Origin: Gemmatimonadales bacterium
GTDB taxonomy: Bacteria; Gemmatimonadota; Gemmatimonadetes; Gemmatimonadales; GWC2-71-9
Reading direction: 5' to 3'
Length of the DNA stretch: 64,000 nt
Assembly (NCBI GenBank): GCA_049680185.1
Contig: JBAUHI010000086.1
Coordinates: 13,231 to 77,230 of the forward strand
Part shown: positions 1,548 through 64,000 of the stretch, piece after piece
Layout of the letters: each line of letters starts with the position of its first letter
Numbering within the stretch: position 1 is the first letter of the stretch
Translations under genes and position numbers: made by a program
The notes under the pieces: generated by a model
Told to the model about the DNA's origin: nothing
The model's input: only the letters and a program-made list of their open reading frames with translations
Databases searched by the model: none

Positions 1548-1633
1548 GTCAACGGGAAACAGTTAACAGTGAACGGGAACTGGGTCGCCCGGCCCTCCAA
1601 CCCCGTTCACCGTTCACTTTTTACCGTTCACCG
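1548..1633. repeat. inverted blocks of GTGAACG/CGTTCAC heptamer-type repeats (hairpin element)
   Basis: On the plus strand, GTCAACGGG and AGTGAACGGG face CCGTTCACCGTTCAC and ACCGTTCACCG. The element starts right after the kinase stop (1637) and sits upstream of rnpB. The same family is at 53806-53886 and 56201-56377. Confidence 0.7.
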
Positions 1634-1636
1634 TCC

Positions 1637-5838: not shown

Positions 5839-6005
5839 GCGCGCAGGAACGGCACCGGGCGGGAGGATCCCCATCGGCGGACGGAAGTGCGGGTCGGAAA
5901 AGGACGAGCGGCAAGTGCGGCAGGGCGCGCGAACGAACGGGCGGAACACAGGCGAGTTGTGGAGCGACCAACGGAGACCGGTAGAGGCCAGCTCCTCTTC
6001 TCCCT

Positions 6006-6095
6006 CTGTCGTAGCGCGTTGTCTCTTGTGTCCTTTCCCCTCCTCCCCTCTTCTTCTCCTTCTCTCGTACTGTGTTGTCTCTTGTCGCTTGTCTC
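6006..6095. repeat. pyrimidine-rich copy of the dispersed GAGACAACGCAGTACGAGAG element
   Basis: CTCTCGTACTGTGTTGTCTC (6062-6081) is the reverse complement of the 20-mer core with 1 mismatch. A second partial core lies at 6006-6025. TTCCCCTCCTCCCCTC (6035-6050) is the complement of GAGGGGAGGAGGGGAA. It lies between the convergent AraC and MCP genes. Confidence 0.75.
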
Positions 6096-6111
6096 TTCTC
6101 CTCGGTCGCAA

Positions 6112-7671
6112 TCAGGCCTTCAAGTGTGCGGTCGCGGTCCGGAGCCGCTCGGCGAGGAGGGTCAGTCGCTCGGCGGAGGTGGTGAGCTCGGTCATCGCCT
6201 GGATCTGCTGCTGGGCGGAACGGGCCGCGGCATCGGAACTGCTCGCCGCACCGTGGCTCACCGCACTCACTCGGTCGAGGACCTGGCGCAGCGCGGCTTG
6301 GTGTTCGGCCTGGGCCTGGGTGCTCTCTGCCGCCGCCGCCACCCGCTCGGCGGAGCGCCGGACGCCGGCGGTGAGGTCGAGCAGCGCCTCGTCCGCCTCC
6401 CGTGCCACCCGCGCGATGTCCTGTACCTGGGATCCTCCGGAACTCATCGCTCGCTCCGCCGAGGCGATCCCCGCCTGCAGTTCCCCGACCACCTCCCCGA
6501 CCTCCCGAGCCGACCGCCCCGCCTGGGCGGCCAGGGTGCGCACCTGTTCCGCCACCACACTGAATCCGTGGCCATCGCCCTCCGCGCGCGCCGCCTCGAT
6601 GGCGGCATTGAGCGACAGGAGGTGCGTCTGCCGCGCGATCACGGCGATGGTCTGTGCAAAACTGCCGATGTTCGCACTCATCGCCGTCAGCTCCGACACG
6701 ATCCGGCCCGTGGTGGCCACCTCGTTGCCGACCGACACCAAGGTGTCGCTCGCGCGCGCCACTCGCTCCCGGGCCCGTTCCGCCACGGCCACCAATCGCG
6801 CCTCTTCATCCTCCAGGGTACGGAATCGCTCTCGCTGCAGTGCCGTCTCAGCCGCAGTACCCTCCCCTTGGCGCCGGCTGTCCTCCGCCATCAATCGCTG
6901 TTGCTGCAGGTCGTGGGCAAGGCGGTCAGCGGCCCCGGAAAGGGCATCGGCCGAGCCCTGAAGTGCGCCGGTCGTGGCCGACAACTCACCCGCGACCTTG
7001 GCCATTTCGTTGGAGTCCTGCTGCACGGCCGCGAGCAAGGTGGCCGTGGCGGATGACATCTGGTCGAATGCGGTCTCGACGGCGCCCACGGGATCGAGCG
7101 TTTTGGTGGACACCCGGAAGGTGAGATCGCCGGTGCTCGCCCGCCGAAGCCCTTCCGCAATGCGGCGCAACCGCGCCTCGGTGACGGCCGCGCGGTCGCG
7201 GAGCCCGATGCCTACGATGCTCACGATGGCAGCTTCGACAAGGGCGGCCGCGGACAGGTCCCCGCCGTTCGCGATCCACTGCGCCACCAGCACGACGATC
7301 CCGCCGGAGAGGGCGGCAAAGGCACCGGGAAGGCCTTCGTCGTCGGCGGCGTACGGGAGCGTCGCGACCAGCGGGAGCACGCCGACCCCGACCAACCCTG
7401 ACAGCGCGATCGGCGCTCCGGTGATGATCAGGTCGAGCAGCAGGGCGCCGACCCACGCGGAGCGTCCCGCAAGTCCGCGGCGTCCGAGGATCCCCGCACC
7501 GAGATTCGCAGCGCCGCCGAGGAGCAGGAGTTCCACCACCTGACTCCACGCCACATCGCCACCCGTCGCCGGCCCCGCACAGATGAGTGCGGCCACGGCG
7601 CCGAGCACCAGCCACCACCGGCGGCGGACGGTGCGCTGAAAGAGGGCGGAGGAGCTGGGCGGAGGGGCCAT
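6112..7671 (-). CDS. methyl-accepting chemotaxis protein with multi-TM N-terminal region
   Basis: The highly conserved MCP signalling hairpin LLSLNAAIEAARAEGDGHGFSVVAEQVRTLAAQAGRSAREV is present. A HAMP-like segment follows about 160 aa of hydrophobic helices. Confidence 0.9.
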   Translation of the reverse strand: MAPPPSSSALFQRTVRRRWWLVLGAVAALICAGPATGGDVAWSQVVELLLLGGAANLGAGILGRRGLAGRSAWVGALLLDLIITGAPIALSGLVGVGVLPLVATLPYAADDEGLPGAFAALSGGIVVLVAQWIANGGDLSAAALVEAAIVSIVGIGLRDRAAVTEARLRRIAEGLRRASTGDLTFRVSTKTLDPVGAVETAFDQMSSATATLLAAVQQDSNEMAKVAGELSATTGALQGSADALSGAADRLAHDLQQQRLMAEDSRRQGEGTAAETALQRERFRTLEDEEARLVAVAERARERVARASDTLVSVGNEVATTGRIVSELTAMSANIGSFAQTIAVIARQTHLLSLNAAIEAARAEGDGHGFSVVAEQVRTLAAQAGRSAREVGEVVGELQAGIASAERAMSSGGSQVQDIARVAREADEALLDLTAGVRRSAERVAAAAESTQAQAEHQAALRQVLDRVSAVSHGAASSSDAAARSAQQQIQAMTELTTSAERLTLLAERLRTATAHLKA

Positions 7672-19603: not shown

Positions 19604-19607
19604 CGCT

Positions 19608-19642
19608 GGCGGGTGACGCGCCACTCGCCCCCGTCACCCGCC
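19608..19642. terminator. bidirectional hairpin between convergent genes
   Basis: Perfect 11-bp stem GGCGGGTGACG / CGTCACCCGCC with a 13-nt loop. The right arm includes the rnd stop codon. Confidence 0.5.
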
Positions 19643-27270: not shown

Positions 27271-27305
27271 GACCCACGACCCACGACACTTGACTCACGA
27301 CCCTT
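27271..27305. repeat. tandem heptamers GACCCAC GACCCAC GACACTT GACTCAC GACCCTT
   Basis: Five period-7 units fill the sufB-sufC spacer and abut the sufC RBS (GGAG at 27307-27310). Confidence 0.65.
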
Positions 27306-34220: not shown

Positions 34221-34240
34221 CCGCACTCCGGGTCTAGACC

Positions 34241-34274
34241 AGAACCCCAGCGATACAGCTGGGGTTCTGCGTTT
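34241..34274 (+). terminator. rho-independent-like terminator
   Basis: Stem AGAACCCCAGC / GCTGGGGTTCT with a 6-nt loop, followed by GCGTTT. Confidence 0.6.
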
Positions 34275-34322
34275 CAGGGTGTTCGCGCGCCCCGGTAGTG
34301 CAAGAGCGTGACCAACCCCCCA

Positions 34323-34338
34323 TGTTTCACGTGAAACA
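34323..34338. promoter_or_regulatory. parS centromere site
   Basis: TGTTTCACGTGAAACA is a perfect 16-bp palindrome matching the canonical parS consensus TGTTNCACGTGAAACA. It lies 122 bp upstream of parA. Confidence 0.85.
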
Positions 34339-34460
34339 GGTGGTATCGGTTGGCCTTCTCTTATTGGAACCGGTATATTGGTGCAATAGGCTCATCATTC
34401 CACTGTTGTACTACACAGTTGTGCTTAACATAACTAATTGCAATAGAAAGACATATACAC

Positions 34461-42665: not shown

Positions 42666-43247
42666 GTGCACGCCACAGAACAAGGGTCGGTGACGTTGAC
42701 CGTCAGCTCGCAAGTCATTGCCAGTGAAGGAGATGGTGATGATGTGGCCCTTGCGCAGGCAGGGGACGAGTTGGCGTTCGAGCGATTGTACCGCCGACAC
42801 TCACCGCGGATATACAACCTGGCTTGGCGGATGCTCGGCGAGGACCACGCCGCCGACGCCACTCAACAGGTGTTCATCCGCGTCTGGTACAAACTCGGGA
42901 CCTTCCGGGGGGAGAGTCGATTCGGCACCTGGCTCCACCGGCTGGCGGTGAACGTTTTCCTGGGTGAACGCGGAGCATTAGGCACCGCGCGGACCAGATT
43001 CCACGACGACGATGGACCGTTGGAGCTGGTGCCGAGTGGCGCACGGGACTCGAGCCCCGAGTTCGCGATGGATTTCGATGCCGCAGTGTCGCGATTGCCG
43101 GACGGATATCGAAAAGTGTTCTTGCTGCACGATGTCGAGGGATACACCCACGAAGAGATCGGGGTGGCGCTTGGCATCGCGACCGGCAGTTCCAAGGCCG
43201 CGCTCCATCGGGCGCGTAATGCGTTGCGGAAACACCTGGACCGGTAG
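42666..43247 (+). CDS. ECF-type RNA polymerase sigma factor
   Basis: Region 2 FERLYRRHSPRIYNLAWRMLG...DATQQVFIRVW and region 4 YRKVFLLHDVEGYTHEEIGVALGIATGSSKAALHRAR. Confidence 0.9.
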   Translation: MHATEQGSVTLTVSSQVIASEGDGDDVALAQAGDELAFERLYRRHSPRIYNLAWRMLGEDHAADATQQVFIRVWYKLGTFRGESRFGTWLHRLAVNVFLGERGALGTARTRFHDDDGPLELVPSGARDSSPEFAMDFDAAVSRLPDGYRKVFLLHDVEGYTHEEIGVALGIATGSSKAALHRARNALRKHLDR

Positions 43248-45027: not shown

Positions 45028-45810
45028 ATGCGCGGTTCGATGATGCTTCTGACGCTGGCCCTCGCGGCGGGGACCGCCGCACCGGCAGCGGCGCAGGATT
45101 TCAGCTGGAAGGGCACGTTGGCGGCGGGGAAGATGCTCGAGGTGAGAGGCGTGATCGGCGGGATCCACGCCAGTCTCGCCTCGGGAGATCAGATCGAGGT
45201 GACGGCGACCAAGCGGGGGCGCCACAGCGATCCCGCAGACGTGAAGATCCAGGTGGTGCCGTGGGATGGCGGGGTCACCATCTGTGCCGTCTACCCGACG
45301 CCGCGGCGCGCCCGCCACGAGAACGAGTGCGCCCCGCAAGGCGGCGGTTCGATGAGCACCGACAACAACGATGTGTCGGTGGAGTTCACGGTGAAGGTGC
45401 CTGCCAAGGTGAACTTCACCGGGGCCACGGTCAACGGGCAGGTGTCGGCAGACGGCCTGGGCGGCGATGCCGACCTGTCGACCGTCAACGGCGACGTATC
45501 AGTGAGCGCTGCCGGAGTGGTCGAGGCGACGACAGTGAACGGATCGATCGACGCCACGAGCGGGAAGAACAACTGGGAGGGAGCGCTCAAGTTCAACACC
45601 GTCAACGGCGGGATCACACTGCGGGTGCCCGATGGGCTGAATGCCGACCTGCGGGCGTCCACCGTCAACGGCAGGATCACCACCGACTTCCCGGTGACCG
45701 TCACGGGCTCGATGAGCCCGCGGAGCCTCAAGGGGAGGATCGGGACTGGCGGACGGGATCTCGACATGGAGACGGTGAACGGGTCGATCGAGATACGGAA
45801 GAAAGGCTAG
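45028..45810 (+). CDS. DUF4097-family beta-helical repeat protein (second paralogue)
   Basis: Signal peptide MRGSMMLLTLALAAGTAAPAAAQ. Repeats TVNGQVSA, TVNGDVSV, TVNGSIDA, TVNGGITL, TVNGRITT and TVNGSIEI. Confidence 0.8.
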   Translation: MRGSMMLLTLALAAGTAAPAAAQDFSWKGTLAAGKMLEVRGVIGGIHASLASGDQIEVTATKRGRHSDPADVKIQVVPWDGGVTICAVYPTPRRARHENECAPQGGGSMSTDNNDVSVEFTVKVPAKVNFTGATVNGQVSADGLGGDADLSTVNGDVSVSAAGVVEATTVNGSIDATSGKNNWEGALKFNTVNGGITLRVPDGLNADLRASTVNGRITTDFPVTVTGSMSPRSLKGRIGTGGRDLDMETVNGSIEIRKKG

Positions 45811-45891
45811 AGGCTGGAGGCTGGGGGAGGCTAGAGGCTAAAGGCCAAGAGCTGAGGGCTTGAAGCTGATAGCAGATAGCTGATAGCTGCC
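45805..45891. repeat. tandem heptamer array (13 units; GGCTNGA then AGCTGAT types)
   Basis: GGCTAGA GGCTGGA GGCTGGG (GGA) GGCTAGA GGCTAAA GGCCAAG AGCTGAG GGCTTGA AGCTGAT AGCAGAT AGCTGAT AGCTGCC. Unit 1 contains the TAG stop of the DUF4097 gene. Confidence 0.85.
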
Positions 45892-45902
45892 ACCGGCCCT
45901 TT

Positions 45903-46277
45903 TCACTCTGGTGGCTTTTCTTCGAACTGTTCCCAGAGCGCGATGCGATTGCCATCGGGATCGGCAACGAGGGCCATGATCCCCCACGATTGGCGGGTCG
46001 GCTCCGATACGAACGTCACACCGGCGTCCATCAGGTCACTGCAATAATCCAGTATGCCAGGAATGTGGAGCACCAGACCCGTGTCGCGGCCCACCATCTC
46101 CTTGGCACTGGGATGATTGGCCGGATGCACGCCGAGCTTGGTGCCGCCGACGAAGAACTCGGCGCCGAACGTTCCCTGCTTGGCGAGCGGGAGCTTGAGC
46201 GTGTCGCGATAGAACGCGATGGCGCGTTCGATGTCAGTGACAAAGATGGCGGCGGAGTAGAGCGATGGGGCGGTCAT
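45903..46277 (-). CDS. VOC/glyoxalase-bleomycin-resistance family protein
   Basis: IFVTDIERAIAFYRDTLKL...GVHPANH...DPDGNRIALWE is the typical VOC fold signature. Confidence 0.85.
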   Translation of the reverse strand: MTAPSLYSAAIFVTDIERAIAFYRDTLKLPLAKQGTFGAEFFVGGTKLGVHPANHPSAKEMVGRDTGLVLHIPGILDYCSDLMDAGVTFVSEPTRQSWGIMALVADPDGNRIALWEQFEEKPPE

Positions 46278-46536
46278 GGGGGTGGCGAGTGGCGGGTGGT
46301 GGGTGAAATGCGACGGGTGCCGGCTCCGGCGTGAAACCTAGCGGGATGACGTTCGGTGACACCCTTCCTCACAAGTAGAGAGGCTCCATCGCGGCCCCGC
46401 TCATGCGCGAGTGGACTCGCGGCTGCAACATATTGGAAAACACTGACCTGTGGGGGTCGCCTGCGGAGACCCTTTGCGGATGGCTCGGAGATTCAAGTGT
46501 GGGTCGCCGCAAGCGACCCCCACGCCTCATCGGAGC

Positions 46537-53194: not shown

Positions 53195-53270
53195 AAGGGG
53201 AGAAGAAGCAGGAGAAAAGAGACAACGCAGTACGAGAAGCTGAGACGATGAGGGGAGGAGGGGAACGGAG
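53195..53270. repeat. purine-rich copy of the dispersed GAGACAACGCAGTACGAGAG element
   Basis: GAGACAACGCAGTACGAGAA lies at 53219-53238 and GAGGGGAGGAGGGGAA at 53250-53265, directly after the MFS stop. Confidence 0.75.
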
Positions 53271-53285
53271 CGTCTGCGTCTTGAT

Positions 53286-53388
53286 CTGTCATCCCGAGCG
53301 TAGCGAGGGACCTACCTTGGCGAGCACGGCGCCATTGGCCCTACTCGATATCGGCAGGCAAGGTCCCTCGCTACGCTCGGGATGACAG
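53286..53388. repeat. perfect 28-bp inverted repeat (GTCATCCCGAGCGTAGCGAGGGACCT hairpin element)
   Basis: Left arm CTGTCATCCCGAGCGTAGCGAGGGACCT (53286-53313) is the exact reverse complement of the right arm (53361-53388). The loop is 47 nt. Confidence 0.85.
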
Positions 53389-53441
53389 GTCGTGGGTTCG
53401 TCCCTGTCCAGCCGCGCAACCCGCCACCCGTCACCCGCCAC

Positions 53442-53786
53442 TCACTTCGCATTCCGGTAGAACAACTCCACCAACTCATCGTACATCGCTTCGCGCTGGG
53501 CCGGGTCGTCGGAGGTGATGGCCTGGGTGGCGCAGTGGCGCAGGTGGTTGCCGAGGAGGGTCTTGCCGACCCCGCGGAGCGCCTCCTGCACTGAGGCGAC
53601 CTGGGTCAGGACGTCAGCGCAGTAGCGCTCGCCCTCGACCATCTTCTGCAGGCCCCGGACCTGGCCTTCGATGCGACGGAGCCGGTTGCCGAGTGCGAGC
53701 TTGATCTCGGGATCGACGGCCACGGCCTTGCGATCGGTGTCGTCGGCGCCGCGTCCGCAGGCGCAGGGGAGTGTCGCGTCGCTCAA
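53442..53786 (-). CDS. csoR: CsoR/RcnR-family metal-sensing repressor
   Basis: RLRRIEGQVRGLQKMVEGERYCADVLTQ...HLRHC carries the Cys-His-Cys ligand pattern. I trimmed the start to TTG 53786, preceded by AAGGAG. Confidence 0.85.
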   Translation of the reverse strand: MSDATLPCACGRGADDTDRKAVAVDPEIKLALGNRLRRIEGQVRGLQKMVEGERYCADVLTQVASVQEALRGVGKTLLGNHLRHCATQAITSDDPAQREAMYDELVELFYRNAK

Positions 53787-53805: not shown

Positions 53806-53886
53806 GGTGAACGGTCAGCGGTGAACGGGGGTGTCGGACGCATCGCCCTTCCAGGGTCCGTTCACTGTTCACTCTTCACCGTTCAC
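53806..53886. repeat. inverted GTGAACG/CGTTCAC heptamer blocks between copA and csoR
   Basis: GGTGAACGGTCAGCGGTGAACGGGGG faces CCGTTCACTGTTCACTCTTCACCGTTCAC. The right block overlaps the copA stop codon. Confidence 0.75.
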
Positions 53887-56200: not shown

Positions 56201-56377
56201 TCGGTGAACGGTGAAGGGTCAACGGGGCTTCGAAGTCCGTCATCCTGAGGCCTGAAGGGCCGAAGGATCGATCCGCCGACGAGCCGATCCTTCGCTCTGC
56301 TCAGGATGACGTTGCTCGTTTGAGATGACGGCCTGCTTCGGCCGTTCACCCTTGACCGTTCAGCGCTCACCGTTCAC
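56201..56377. repeat. composite nested palindromic element inside the cop operon
   Basis: Outer arms are heptamers: GGTGAACGGTGAAGGGTCAACGG (56201-56227 region) and CCGTTCACCCTTGACCGTTCAGCGCTCACCGTTCAC (56341-56377). The inner hairpin pairs GTCATCCTGAG (56239-56249) with CTCAGGATGAC (56300-56310). The core pairs CGAAGGATCG with CGATCCTTCG. Confidence 0.8.
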
Positions 56378-56965: not shown

Positions 56966-56982
56966 GGTTGGACTCCTCAAAA

Positions 56983-57052
56983 GGCTGGAGGCTGAGGGCT
57001 AGAGGCTCGCTGGTAGCTGGTAGCTGGTAGCTGGTAGCCAACCACCAACTCT
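56983..57052. repeat. tandem heptamer array (GGCTNNN x4, TGGTAGC x4, CAAC-type x2)
   Basis: GGCTGGA GGCTGAG GGCTAGA GGCTCGC TGGTAGC TGGTAGC TGGTAGC TGGTAGC CAACCAC CAACTCT. It lies between the predicted cop promoter and the copZ RBS. Confidence 0.85.
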
Positions 57053-59021: not shown

Positions 59022-59297
59022 TCGAGACACGAGGAAGGAGACAAGAGACAACGCAGATCGGTGCGGCGAGAAGAAGAGGGGAGGAGGCGAACGAGGCGAC
59101 ACGAGAAAGGAGACAACGCAGGTGGGGGCAGGGAGCGGAAGAGGTAGAGGAGGGGAACGGGAGAGCGGCATGAATTCTGATTTGCGTTCGCCTTTTCCCG
59201 TCTTCCCCCTCCTCCACCTCTGTCGGCCCTGTCCCGTCGTCCTCTCCCTCCCCTCTCGTACTGCGTTGTCTCGTTTCTCCTGTCTCTGCATTCTCAC
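59022..59297. repeat. about 275-bp strand-asymmetric inverted repeat built from the GAGACAACGCAG element
   Basis: The left half is purine-rich (GAGACAACGCAG at 59045 and 59110; GAGGGGAGGAGGCGAA at 59076-59091). The right half is pyrimidine-rich, with CTCTCGTACTGCGTTGTCTC at 59253-59272. The arms are imperfectly complementary around the centre near 59170-59190. Confidence 0.8.
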
Positions 59298-63670: not shown

Positions 63671-64000
63671 AGGCTGTGTTGGTAGCGGGGCTGCTGGTAG
63701 GCTATCAGCTATCAGCTATCGGCTATCAAGGGACTGCGAGCTATCGGCTATCGGCTATCAGCTACCTGCCGGGCAATGAGATCACGATCGGCGGCCCGCG
63801 CCACTCGCCACTCGCCACCGGGCGTGCCAAGGCACGCCCCGGCAGCCACACCTTCGCGATTGCCAAGGGGCATTTTCTCCTCGACAAGAAGCCGATCCAG
63901 CTCCTCTCCGGTGAGCTGCACTACACCCGGATCCCGCGAGAGTACTGGGCCAATCGGCTGGCGATGGCGAAGGCGATGGGACTGAACACCATCTCCACCT
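63667..64000 (+). CDS. glycoside hydrolase family 35 beta-galactosidase, N-terminal fragment (runs off window end)
   Basis: HFLLDKKPIQLLSGELHYTRIPREYWANRLAMAKAMGLNTIST matches the GH35 N-terminal core. The only in-frame canonical starts are ATG 63667, GTG 63676 and TTG 63679. It is not in the ORF track because there is no stop in the window. Confidence 0.8.
   Translation, partial: MKAVLVAGLLVGYQLSAIGYQGTASYRLSAISYLPGNEITIGGPRHSPLATGRAKARPGSHTFAIAKGHFLLDKKPIQLLSGELHYTRIPREYWANRLAMAKAMGLNTIST
63680..63821. repeat. heptamer arrays (TGGTAGC, CTATCAG/CTATCGG, CCACTCG) inside the GH35 5' region
   Basis: TGGTAGC (63680), TGGTAGG (63695), CTATCAG CTATCAG CTATCGG CTATCAA (63702-63729), CTATCGG CTATCGG CTATCAG CTACCTG (63741-63768), CCACTCG CCACTCG CCACCGG (63801-63821). 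Confidence 0.85.

Follow-up and report, generated by a model that had tools for sequence, protein, structure and literature searches.

Period-7 tandem arrays at gene ends in a lineage of soil Gemmatimonadales

We examined a 64,000-nucleotide (nt) stretch of a Gemmatimonadales genome (GenBank assembly GCA_049680185.1, contig JBAUHI010000086.1, positions 13,231 to 77,230 of the forward strand), hereafter the window, and in particular the spacer between two convergent genes, one for a DUF4097 protein and one for a VOC-family protein (Table 1). The DUF4097 gene closes an operon of the order sigma factor / anti-sigma / DUF4097 / DUF4097. An earlier note, made from the letters alone, had described the spacer as built from tandem heptanucleotides, and at 45805-45891 its unit parse was exact: GGCTAGA GGCTGGA GGCTGGG (GGA) GGCTAGA GGCTAAA GGCCAAG AGCTGAG GGCTTGA AGCTGAT AGCAGAT AGCTGAT AGCTGCC. 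Its count of 13 units was one too high, these 87 nt holding 12 heptamers and one 3-nt indel (GGA). Identity of the array to itself is 0.69 at lag 7 and 0.56 at lag 14 and lies between 0.17 and 0.32 at all remaining lags; none of 100,000 shuffles matched the lag-7 value (best shuffle 0.49). Tandem Repeats Finder (TRF) returned two period-7 sub-arrays, 45804-45845 and 45864-45889. Unit 1 includes the TAG stop of the DUF4097 gene (45808-45810), and the array ends 11 nt before the VOC stop (45903-45905), both as the note had it.

The array is 67% purine, carries TAG, TGA or TAA in all three plus-strand frames and is 41% C and 17% G on its minus strand (from plus-strand counts of 36 G and 15 C in 87 nt). 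It has no inverted partner, because VOC coding sequence lies on its right side. A permissive Rfam scan of 45500-46500 matched no family, and the array folds no better than shuffled sequence (z-score -1.0), on which ground we rejected it as a structured RNA or as a terminator, a role that the earlier note had entertained. A terminator-like hairpin stands just after the array, and the last unit of sub-array B, AGCTGCC, continues into its 5' arm. Written as RNA, the hairpin reads GCCACCGG-(11 nt)-CUGGUGGC-UUUUCUU; the stem-loop 45889-45915 has a folding energy of -13.3 kcal/mol (z -2.1), its 3' arm and T-run fall within the last VOC codons, and it overlaps the VOC stop. A simple terminator scan overlooked it, the loop being 11 nt and the limit of the scan 8 nt. 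Both copies of this hairpin in the closest relative, L001, are kept, with pair-preserving changes in the alignment (C-G to G-U, G-U to G-C and A-U to G-U). We regard the predicted hairpin and U-tract at 45889-45922 as a probable transcript terminator, and the array as probably a purine-rich, unstructured 3' untranslated region (UTR) filler ahead of it, in a transcript that we infer to extend through the array and end there. The two L001 copies lie at 6640-6860, where an approximately 125-bp tandem duplication spans the DUF4097 gene end, a decayed array and the hairpin, the copies being about three-quarters identical by eye.

Stops in all three frames would also suit a functional 'three-frame stop pad', and the minus strand behind the VOC gene, C-rich, G-poor and unstructured as Rho-dependent termination needs, would suit a Rho-loading (rut) region. 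Many units in other arrays likewise carry a sense stop triplet (GTGAACG, GTAAGAA, TAGCTGA), which is expected anyway if arrays are seeded at stop codons; however, the common units GGTCGTT, GGTGGCG and GACCCAC are stop-free on both strands, and C-richness of the sense strand is inconsistent across arrays. We give either function very little credence. The placement of the studied array, downstream of both genes, also differs from that of contingency simple sequence repeats (SSRs), which occupy promoters, 5' UTRs or coding sequence; the arrays at 46280, 56202, 56982 and 63701 do sit in leaders or coding sequence.

The window holds about 12 period-7 array sites by TRF. Under a strict threshold we counted 5 arrays of period 7 and 0-1 of each other period (dinucleotide shuffles, 0.0); among periods not divisible by 3, period 7 alone is enriched, and the lag-7/14 autocorrelation peak is confined to non-coding DNA. 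Eleven of 15 period-7 segments lie in non-coding DNA, which makes up 10.4% of the window (P = 1.5e-8). Of the four segments scored as coding, three occur in frame where a GH35 beta-galactosidase gene encodes its signal-peptide region and the fourth, at 1970-1984 in a kinase gene, is a weak two-unit match. The bias toward gene ends that the earlier note had proposed to tabulate is present: five genes (DUF4097, Ser/Thr kinase, csoR-like, copA and cupredoxin) have their stop codon within an array or at most 2 nt from one. In several arrays the first unit includes the gene's own stop (TGA in GTGAACG, TAA in GTAAGAA, TAG in GGCTAGA). One further copy named in the note, at 56983-57052, was recovered as AGGCTGG-type units followed by (GCTGGTA)x4 at 56982-57052. 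Another, at 63702-63761, held in part: (GCTATCA)n at 63701-63764 is indeed the reverse complement of AGCTGAT, but it is in-frame coding sequence of GH35 and no intergenic copy.

Protein searches with DUF4097 and SufB led to metagenome-assembled genomes (MAGs) of soil Gemmatimonadales, the closest being 85% identical in DNA over 6.7 kb. For comparison we gathered 183 kb from a clade whose SufB proteins share 87% identity or more, seven genomes in all (the window, L001/L010, L002/L120, L011, L012, L119 and L121), and an outgroup sample of 85 kb from Gemmatimonadales further removed (L003 and L013-L015; SufB 83-85% identical in L013-L015, DUF4097 protein 56% in L003). In the first six clade sequences (136 kb) we found 24.9 period-7 arrays per 100 kb, versus 3.5 in the outgroup; periods 4, 5, 8, 10 and 11 gave 0-11 arrays per 100 kb in clade and outgroup alike. 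TRF over the full clade sample gave 25.7 per 100 kb versus 3.5. The excess is thus peculiar to this lineage and to period 7. The scan of relatives that the earlier note had proposed thus returned arrays that vary in length and sequence, and its null alternative, incidental low complexity restricted to the window, is ruled out by the shuffles, the gene-end bias and the arrays in relatives. Exact-protein look-ups returned no record of the DUF4097, SufB or VOC protein of the window, and a metagenome scan with the DUF4097 protein returned 6 loci only, all distant.

Orthologous spacers differ among these genomes. Between DUF4097 and VOC, L001 has about 8 decayed units (GAGCTGA GGACTCA GAGCAAG GAGCTTG GAGCGTG among them), with a lag-7 identity of 0.49 that 17 of 20,000 shuffles reached (P ~1e-3), and L002 has no array. 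The sigma/anti-sigma spacer is 14 nt with 0 units in the window, holds two units in L001 and (GGTCGTT)x4 in L002, and at the VOC leader (46280 site) the array of the window exceeds that of L001 by 12 nt. In L005, whose DUF4097 homologue is 41% identical, the gene is followed by (GGTCAGC)x5 and an inverted copy (hairpin z -6.5). The DUF4097 homologues of L001, L003 and L005 terminate in ...AGC TGA G, which is the heptamer AGCTGAG (unit 7 of the studied array). Between sufB and sufC, all seven clade genomes carry arrays of GGTC+NNN units in 3-9 copies, the unit differing by genome (GGTCGTT, GGTCGTG, GGTCGGT, GGTCACA); the three outgroups have array-free spacers of 22-38 nt, with an ordinary Shine-Dalgarno sequence. 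These spacer comparisons thus indicate that arrays are inherited, homogenised per lineage (concerted evolution), resized and at times lost. The source of the window is probably a MAG, in which repeats are prone to mis-assembly and copy numbers may be inexact; arrays nevertheless occupy orthologous sites in independent NCBI, ENA and JGI assemblies, and the shuffle tests exclude chance, so that an assembly artefact or chance low complexity is barely credible as an explanation.

Inverted pairs make up one third of the clade arrays, and neighbouring pairs of one unit were inverted in 8 cases and direct in 0. Hairpins formed by inverted arrays have z-scores of -3 to -11 overall. At sufB-sufC, five of the seven clade genomes have an inverted partner (z -3.0 to -6.5), with arms that co-vary (GGTCGTT/AACGACC, GTCGTGG/CCACGAC and GGTCGGT/ACCGACC, in phase TGGTCGG/CCGACCA); in the window and in L011 a single arm is left (z ~0). 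In relatives, an array, a GC hairpin and an inverted array often take up the whole of a convergent spacer between its two stops, as in L010 and L120, where the spacer reads (GTGAAAA)n-GGGGNCCCC...-(TTTTCAC)n. The stems are nearly all Watson-Crick (1-5 G.U pairs per ~35), and in four of seven co-directional spacers it is the antisense strand, not the transcribed one, that folds better. The scarcity of G.U pairs and the lack of any sense-strand advantage argue for copying at the DNA level and leave RNA-level selection on the hairpins unsupported. One hairpin, in the convergent patatin-def spacer of L121 (8896-9100), has a right arm of ~10-nt units (CTTCTTACCC-like, ~12 copies); the array-armed hairpins of the clade are therefore not strictly of period 7.

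The same arrays could have been selected as cis-regulatory elements. Hairpin pairs would then terminate or stabilise mRNA, as the repetitive extragenic palindromic (REP) sequences of enterobacterial operons do, and single arrays would be unstructured leaders or 3' UTRs, or multivalent sites for a protein with a 7-nt footprint; a cold-shock-domain protein binding one domain per heptamer is a candidate, with copy number tuning expression. Consistent with regulation are the placement of arrays exactly at gene ends, the conservation at sufB-sufC, with arrays kept in 7/7 genomes, strong hairpins in 5/7 and co-varying arms, and the convergent spacers of L010 and L120, whose order (A-rich array) - GC hairpin - (T-rich array) resembles that of a terminator acting in both directions. 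Precedent exists in the regulatory 7-bp repeats of the H. influenzae hmw1A promoter and the TTTTGAT heptads of the V. cholerae ctxAB promoter, as summarised in the literature, and CspB binds heptamer repeats (PMC4679880). Yet the hairpin has been lost from the same sufB-sufC site in the window and L011, close relatives lack whole arrays in orthologous spacers, and outgroups run the same operons with short Shine-Dalgarno spacers and no arrays. Single arrays moreover follow no rule of strand or composition relative to the direction of transcription, the sense strand being G-rich in some, C-rich in others and purine-rich in yet others, stems are Watson-Crick with the transcribed strand unfavoured, and the studied array is unstructured. 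We hold a regulatory origin to be unlikely, but not negligibly so.

We think it reasonably probable that the studied spacer is a heptanucleotide microsatellite produced by slippage at a gene end, with fold-back copying building second arms elsewhere. The seed would be the heptamer that closes the DUF4097 gene and includes its stop (AGC-TGA-G or GGC-TAG-A); from it, repeated 7-nt slipped-strand duplication would have extended the array downstream into the sole DNA without coding constraint, up to the hairpin at the VOC gene end. Where the opposite side is free, fold-back (intramolecular template-switch) copying could add a complementary arm and so yield an 'array - loop - inverted array' hairpin; the studied array would be one-armed because its opposite side is coding. 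Within a gene a 7-nt indel would be lethal unless units came in threes and were stop-free, the case of the GH35 signal peptide; between genes it would be near-neutral, so that arrays would persist. The studied array would be transcribed as a 3' UTR with stops in three frames, and the hairpin and U-tract would end the transcript. It would be one product of a lineage-specific, DNA-level process that fills intergenic gaps with period-7 arrays. The sequences themselves show the periodicity, the gene-end bias, the enrichment in the lineage, the turnover of units and copy numbers in orthologous spacers, the inverted-pair layout and the Watson-Crick stems; from these we infer slippage and template switching as the generating steps, the near-neutral character of the arrays, and a transcript that runs through the array to end at the hairpin.

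Polymerase slippage has been proposed for the heptanucleotide SSRs of bacteria (Mrazek 2007, as cited in PMC4679880 and PMC4692102). Local slippage fits here because DUF4097 homologues end in AGCTGAG, the first unit contains the stop, flanks of arrays are unrelated and single-copy heptamers are not enriched. Loops of 7 nt exceed the range of MutS-type mismatch repair in E. coli, and quasipalindrome correction is a known instance of fold-back template switching. The earlier note had set a dispersed modular family against one-off slippage. We do find a dispersed set with recurring units, but the opposition is a false one, and many local slippage events are favoured over a mobile family because arrays of the same unit have unrelated loops and flanks, only the arrays themselves aligning. 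A MITE-like element (miniature inverted-repeat transposable element) with conserved interior or flanks was rejected for the same alignment pattern. Outside arrays, heptamers occur as single copies at the frequency expected from a third-order Markov model (GTGAACG 14 vs 12.2, TAGCTGA 1 vs 0.8; RGCTNR 453 vs 452 expected), and on this basis we also rejected a DNA uptake sequence or a dispersed single binding motif.

Several observations weigh against slippage at each locus alone. Array pairs with an identical canonical unit number 20 versus 1.3 expected, and the families GTGAACG, GGTCGNN, GGTGGCG and TAGCTGA turn up again at sites that are not orthologous and in unrelated contigs from metagenomes, a recurrence that pure local slippage does not predict. 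The sufB-sufC arrays persist in all clade members examined, which could mean selection, and our tests give no reason for a period of 7 over one of 5 or 8. In the IMG/VR database we found 45 stretches of (TAGCTGA)3, 17 of (GTGAACG)3, 9 of (AGGCTGG)3 and 3 of (GTGGGTC)3, against 27 and 2 for the same-composition controls (GATTCAG)3 and (ATGTCGA)3. TAGCTGA is thus not singled out as a special unit, IMG/VR holding heptamer arrays of many sequences; unrelated contigs (29-72% GC) carry the same unit families together with other period-7 arrays, often in inverted pairs. One 'viral' contig, IMGVR_UViG_3300044798_000503 (47 kb, ~64% GC; L020, L022, L030, L043, L045 and L056), has (TAGCTGA)3 at no fewer than 8 places (>=8) and many further heptamer arrays in inverted pairs.

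A limited repertoire of this kind is what would be expected if the arrays, and the inverted pairs above all, were non-autonomous mobile or copied elements akin to REPINs (inverted doublets of REP sequences), spread or rewritten between loci by a trans-acting enzyme. L012 uses GGTCGTG at three different spacers and L121 uses GGT[ACG]GTC at two of the same, the shared families and inverted pairs extend to unrelated IMG/VR contigs, and the inverted-doublet layout resembles REPINs (PMC3116915). Unit sharing between spacers is 15.9% within a genome and 10.1% between genomes, an excess that is not significant (permutation p = 0.065), so that genome-specific unit 'dialects' common to several loci are suggestive only. 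Set against mobility are the absence of fixed lengths or ends, the variable unit number, the unrelated loops and flanks and the expected frequency of single-copy heptamers. No gene for a REP-associated tyrosine transposase (RAYT; Y1 transposase) was seen in the gene tables of the window and the relatives' fragments, which cover only part of the genomes, and no other transposase was noticed among the annotated genes, the Pfam scan covering part of the window's open reading frames (ORFs). We consider such mobility improbable. The small repertoire, the recurrence in IMG/VR, the L012 and L121 variants and the unexplained period nonetheless keep both the regulatory and the enzyme-driven, REPIN-like readings alive, at lower probability than slippage.

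Similarly doubtful, in our estimation, is a DNA-level process beyond ordinary slippage that writes stop-anchored arrays and their perfectly complementary inverted arms from a small unit repertoire. Were it real, it might be driven by a variant of the replisome or of a repair system, or by a nuclease or copying enzyme dedicated to the task; what it produced would count as a novel type of intergenic hairpin element that propagates itself, behaving like REPINs and having microsatellite arms, and the process might also underlie the short tandemly repeated repetitive (STRR) sequences of cyanobacteria and the heptamer-rich IMG/VR contigs.

Since the STRR were described in 1990 and bacterial SSRs were surveyed in 2007, it has been asked why bacteria amass tandem repeats whose unit is exactly seven bases. 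In our sample the boundary of the trait appears sharp, with 25 versus 3.5 arrays per 100 kb in relatives that share ~85% SufB identity and the same gene order, and this contrast of array-rich and array-poor genomes is what is needed to seek causal replisome, repair or nucleic-acid-binding genes. Stop-codon anchoring, concerted 'dialects' and Watson-Crick inverted pairs (one third) are easily checked in any heptamer-rich genome. The main value of these observations is comparative, in that they make the 'why seven?' question more tractable. Annotators of soil MAGs should be aware that such arrays move the ends of ORFs and can add peptides in frame, the GH35 signal peptide being an example; short-read assemblies are also likely to break or collapse at them.

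The remaining arrays of the window lie in varied settings (Table 1). The array in the VOC leader is unstructured (z +1.4). The array hairpin at 1555..1634 lies 2 nt past the stop of the Ser/Thr kinase gene (1637-1639) and upstream of the RNase P RNA gene; the latter (bacterial class A, RF00010, 1132-1529 on the minus strand, 264.6 bits) was the sole match of a gathering-threshold Rfam scan of the whole window, and the ORF 985-1566 that overlaps it is spurious. At the site of the mini-hairpin 19604..19633, relatives have far longer array hairpins (z -11.3 for the L012 orthologue). The inverted pair at 56202 and 56342 forms the outer stem of a 185-nt structure around a REP-like palindrome (-90.9 kcal/mol, z -5.65), and the stop of the cupredoxin gene (56367-56369) falls within its array 56342-56377. 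The composite array 56982..57052 lies between the stop of a histidine-kinase gene and the start of an HMA-domain gene (Pfam). In GH35 (Pfam PF01301 from residue 70), heptamers encode an in-frame insertion of ~26 residues with YQLSAIG-type repeats, which is missing in the Gemmatimonadales orthologue P0121; the gene (63667 onward, plus strand) begins at an ATGA overlap with a preceding small ORF.

The window has other repeats as well. A TRF period-7 match of unit TTGTCTC at 6075-6097 was excluded from the heptamer arrays as part of a dispersed, purine-rich element of ~70 nt (core GAGACAACGCAGTACGAGA), present in at least 6 intergenic copies, of which the opposed ones at 59026-59289 form a long imperfect palindrome. 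Two further long palindromes, 53283-53391 (41-nt arms, 88% complementary) and 56226-56341 (enclosed by the inverted pair of heptamer arrays in the copA leader), share the motif GTCATCC[CT]GAGC...GCGA[AG]GGA and look REP-like, with no Rfam match. An AT-rich spacer upstream of parA-parB (34221-34460) contains a conserved palindrome, GTTTCACGTGAAAC, also found in the orthologous spacers of L010, L011, L012 and L121; in outgroups gidA adjoins this spacer, and the region may be near a replication origin.

Table 1. Coordinates of the studied spacer, its neighbours and other repeat features of the window
Feature	Position	Strand	Basis
Sigma factor gene upstream of DUF4097	42666-43247		sigma-70 domains (Pfam)
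DUF4097 ('toastrack') gene	45028..45810	+	ORF list; Pfam PF13349
Sub-array A: GGCTAGA/GGCTGGA-type units, phase AGGCTRG, ~5.6 copies, one 3-nt indel (GGA)	45805..45845	+	TRF period 7; unit parse
Degenerate transitional units (GCCAAG AGCTGAG GGCTT) joining sub-arrays A and B	45846..45863	+	sequence; 87-nt lag-7 identity
Sub-array B: AGCTGAT units (= TAGCTGA repeat), 3.7 copies	45864..45891	+	TRF
Terminator-like hairpin: GCCACCGG, 11-nt loop, CTGGTGGC, then TTTTCTT	45889..45922	+	fold
Convergent glyoxalase/VOC-family gene	45903..46277	-	Pfam PF00903; ORF list
GGGTGGC-type array (mRNA strand C-rich CACCCRC), 2 nt upstream of VOC start codon	46280..46305	+	TRF
GTGAACG-type array (1603-1634) and inverted partial arm (1569-1577), hairpin z -3.5	1555..1634	-	TRF; fold
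30-nt convergent spacer, mini-hairpin of GGCGGGTG / CACTCGCC units	19604..19633		lag-7 identity 0.57
(GACCCAC)x5, sufB-sufC spacer; one remaining arm of clade-conserved array hairpin	27271..27305	+	TRF; orthologous spacers; folds
(GTGGCGG)x4, 0 nt after csoR-like repressor stop (53442-53444)	53415..53441	-	TRF; Pfam PF02583
(GTGAACN)x4 including stop (53883-53885) of copA-type P-type ATPase gene	53860..53886	-	TRF; ORF list; Pfam
Inverted GTGAACG-type pair (56202-56225 and 56342-56377)	56202..56377	-	TRF; fold; Pfam
Composite of AGGCTGG-type x4, (GCTGGTA)x4.3 and CCAACCA x2	56982..57052	+	TRF; lag-7 identity 0.70, 0/20,000 shuffles
(GCTATCA)x8.6 and (CGCCACT)x2.9, in frame, stop-free, in GH35 beta-galactosidase N-terminal signal-peptide coding region	63701..63818	+	TRF; translation
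Starts of period-7 arrays	1603, 27271, 45804/45864, 46280, 53415, 53860, 56202, 56342, 56982/57009, 63701, 63799		TRF
Copies of the ~70-nt element	53200-53272, 59026-59098, 59103-59144	+	
Copies of the ~70-nt element, inverted	5992-6042, 6048-6101, 59239-59289	inverted	

Several known systems resemble these arrays in part. The STRR of heterocystous cyanobacteria (Mazel et al. 1990, as cited in PMC4692102) are likewise tandem heptamers, with several families per genome, mostly intergenic, in many copies and with no established function. The host here, however, belongs to the Gemmatimonadota and the DNA is 67% GC. None of the STRR units (CCCCAGT, TTGGTCA, CAACAGT) is among the TRF consensus units of the window, and we know of no description in STRR of stop-codon anchoring or of inverted pairs as prevalent as here. 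The label 'STRR-like' of the earlier note is therefore valid as an analogy (period, several families, intergenic placement) and not as membership, because unit sequences and taxon differ. Its statement that no equivalent was known for GC-rich, non-cyanobacterial genomes is contradicted by reports from Xanthomonas (PMC4692102), Geobacter metallireducens (PMC2700814) and, as summarised in PMC4679880, Burkholderia and Actinobacteria.

The GGGAATC / GGGGAYT repeats of Xanthomonas and Nostoc (PMC4692102) are intergenic near start or stop codons and sometimes form inverted pairs, and those of Xanthomonas share a GC-rich, non-cyanobacterial host and length variation between sister species at the same loci. 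Their units have G3-4 tracts and form G-quadruplexes, whereas here there are several unrelated families with GG at most, except for one GGGGG run at 45822-45826; we rejected identity with G-quadruplex repeats, which call for at least four tracts of G3 or more. The TAACTGA repeats of marine Beggiatoaceae, cyanobacteria and Bacteroidetes (PMC4679880) are one base off the TAGCTGA found here. Both units hold two forward stop codons, are translatable in reverse and are not enriched as single copies, and the TAACTGA arrays too are intergenic, often mixed with other heptamers and occasionally in frame within ORFs; they differ in having one dominant unit mainly upstream of starts, where ours are of many families and mainly stop-anchored. 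Geobacter metallireducens, with a fairly GC-rich, non-cyanobacterial genome, has many short heptamer arrays between and within genes, GGACCGG x4 in 49 copies and MTYCTGA x5 at 15 sites (PMC2700814), but these have a fixed 4 or 5 copies and were proposed as regulator-binding or RNA elements, and copy number varies here. REP/REPIN sequences (PMC3116915) share intergenic inverted doublets, hairpins, gene-end and operon-interior placement, variable loops and lineage-specific sequences; inverted hairpins of this kind occur in one third of the clade arrays and not at the 45805 array. REPINs are made of fixed-length units without 7-nt periodicity and are mobilised by RAYT, in contrast to the variable-length tandem arms here, and identity with REPINs was rejected since unit numbers vary and no fixed-length copies with defined ends exist.

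The closest match is the class of heptanucleotide long SSRs (Mrazek, Guo & Shah 2007; Huang & Mrazek 2014; summarised in PMC4679880 and PMC4692102), with which our arrays share the period of 7, intergenic enrichment, lineage-specific abundance, variation in length and sequence among close relatives and slippage as the proposed origin; coverage of Gemmatimonadota is not apparent from summaries of that survey. By those summaries, many bacteria, Burkholderia and Actinobacteria among them, have heptanucleotide repeats as their commonest class of long SSR (Mrazek 2007, via PMC4679880 and PMC4692102). The arrays have the defining features of this class: a unit of 5-11 nt iterated beyond chance (12 units, lag-7 identity 0.69 and the TRF score), an intergenic excess of period 7, and variation between related genomes at four orthologous spacers. 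We searched the literature for DNA heptamer repeats of Gemmatimonas and no paper on them came up; the host lineage therefore appears new for the phenomenon. The arrays of the window thus appear to extend a known but mechanistically unsolved class of bacterial repeats to the Gemmatimonadales.

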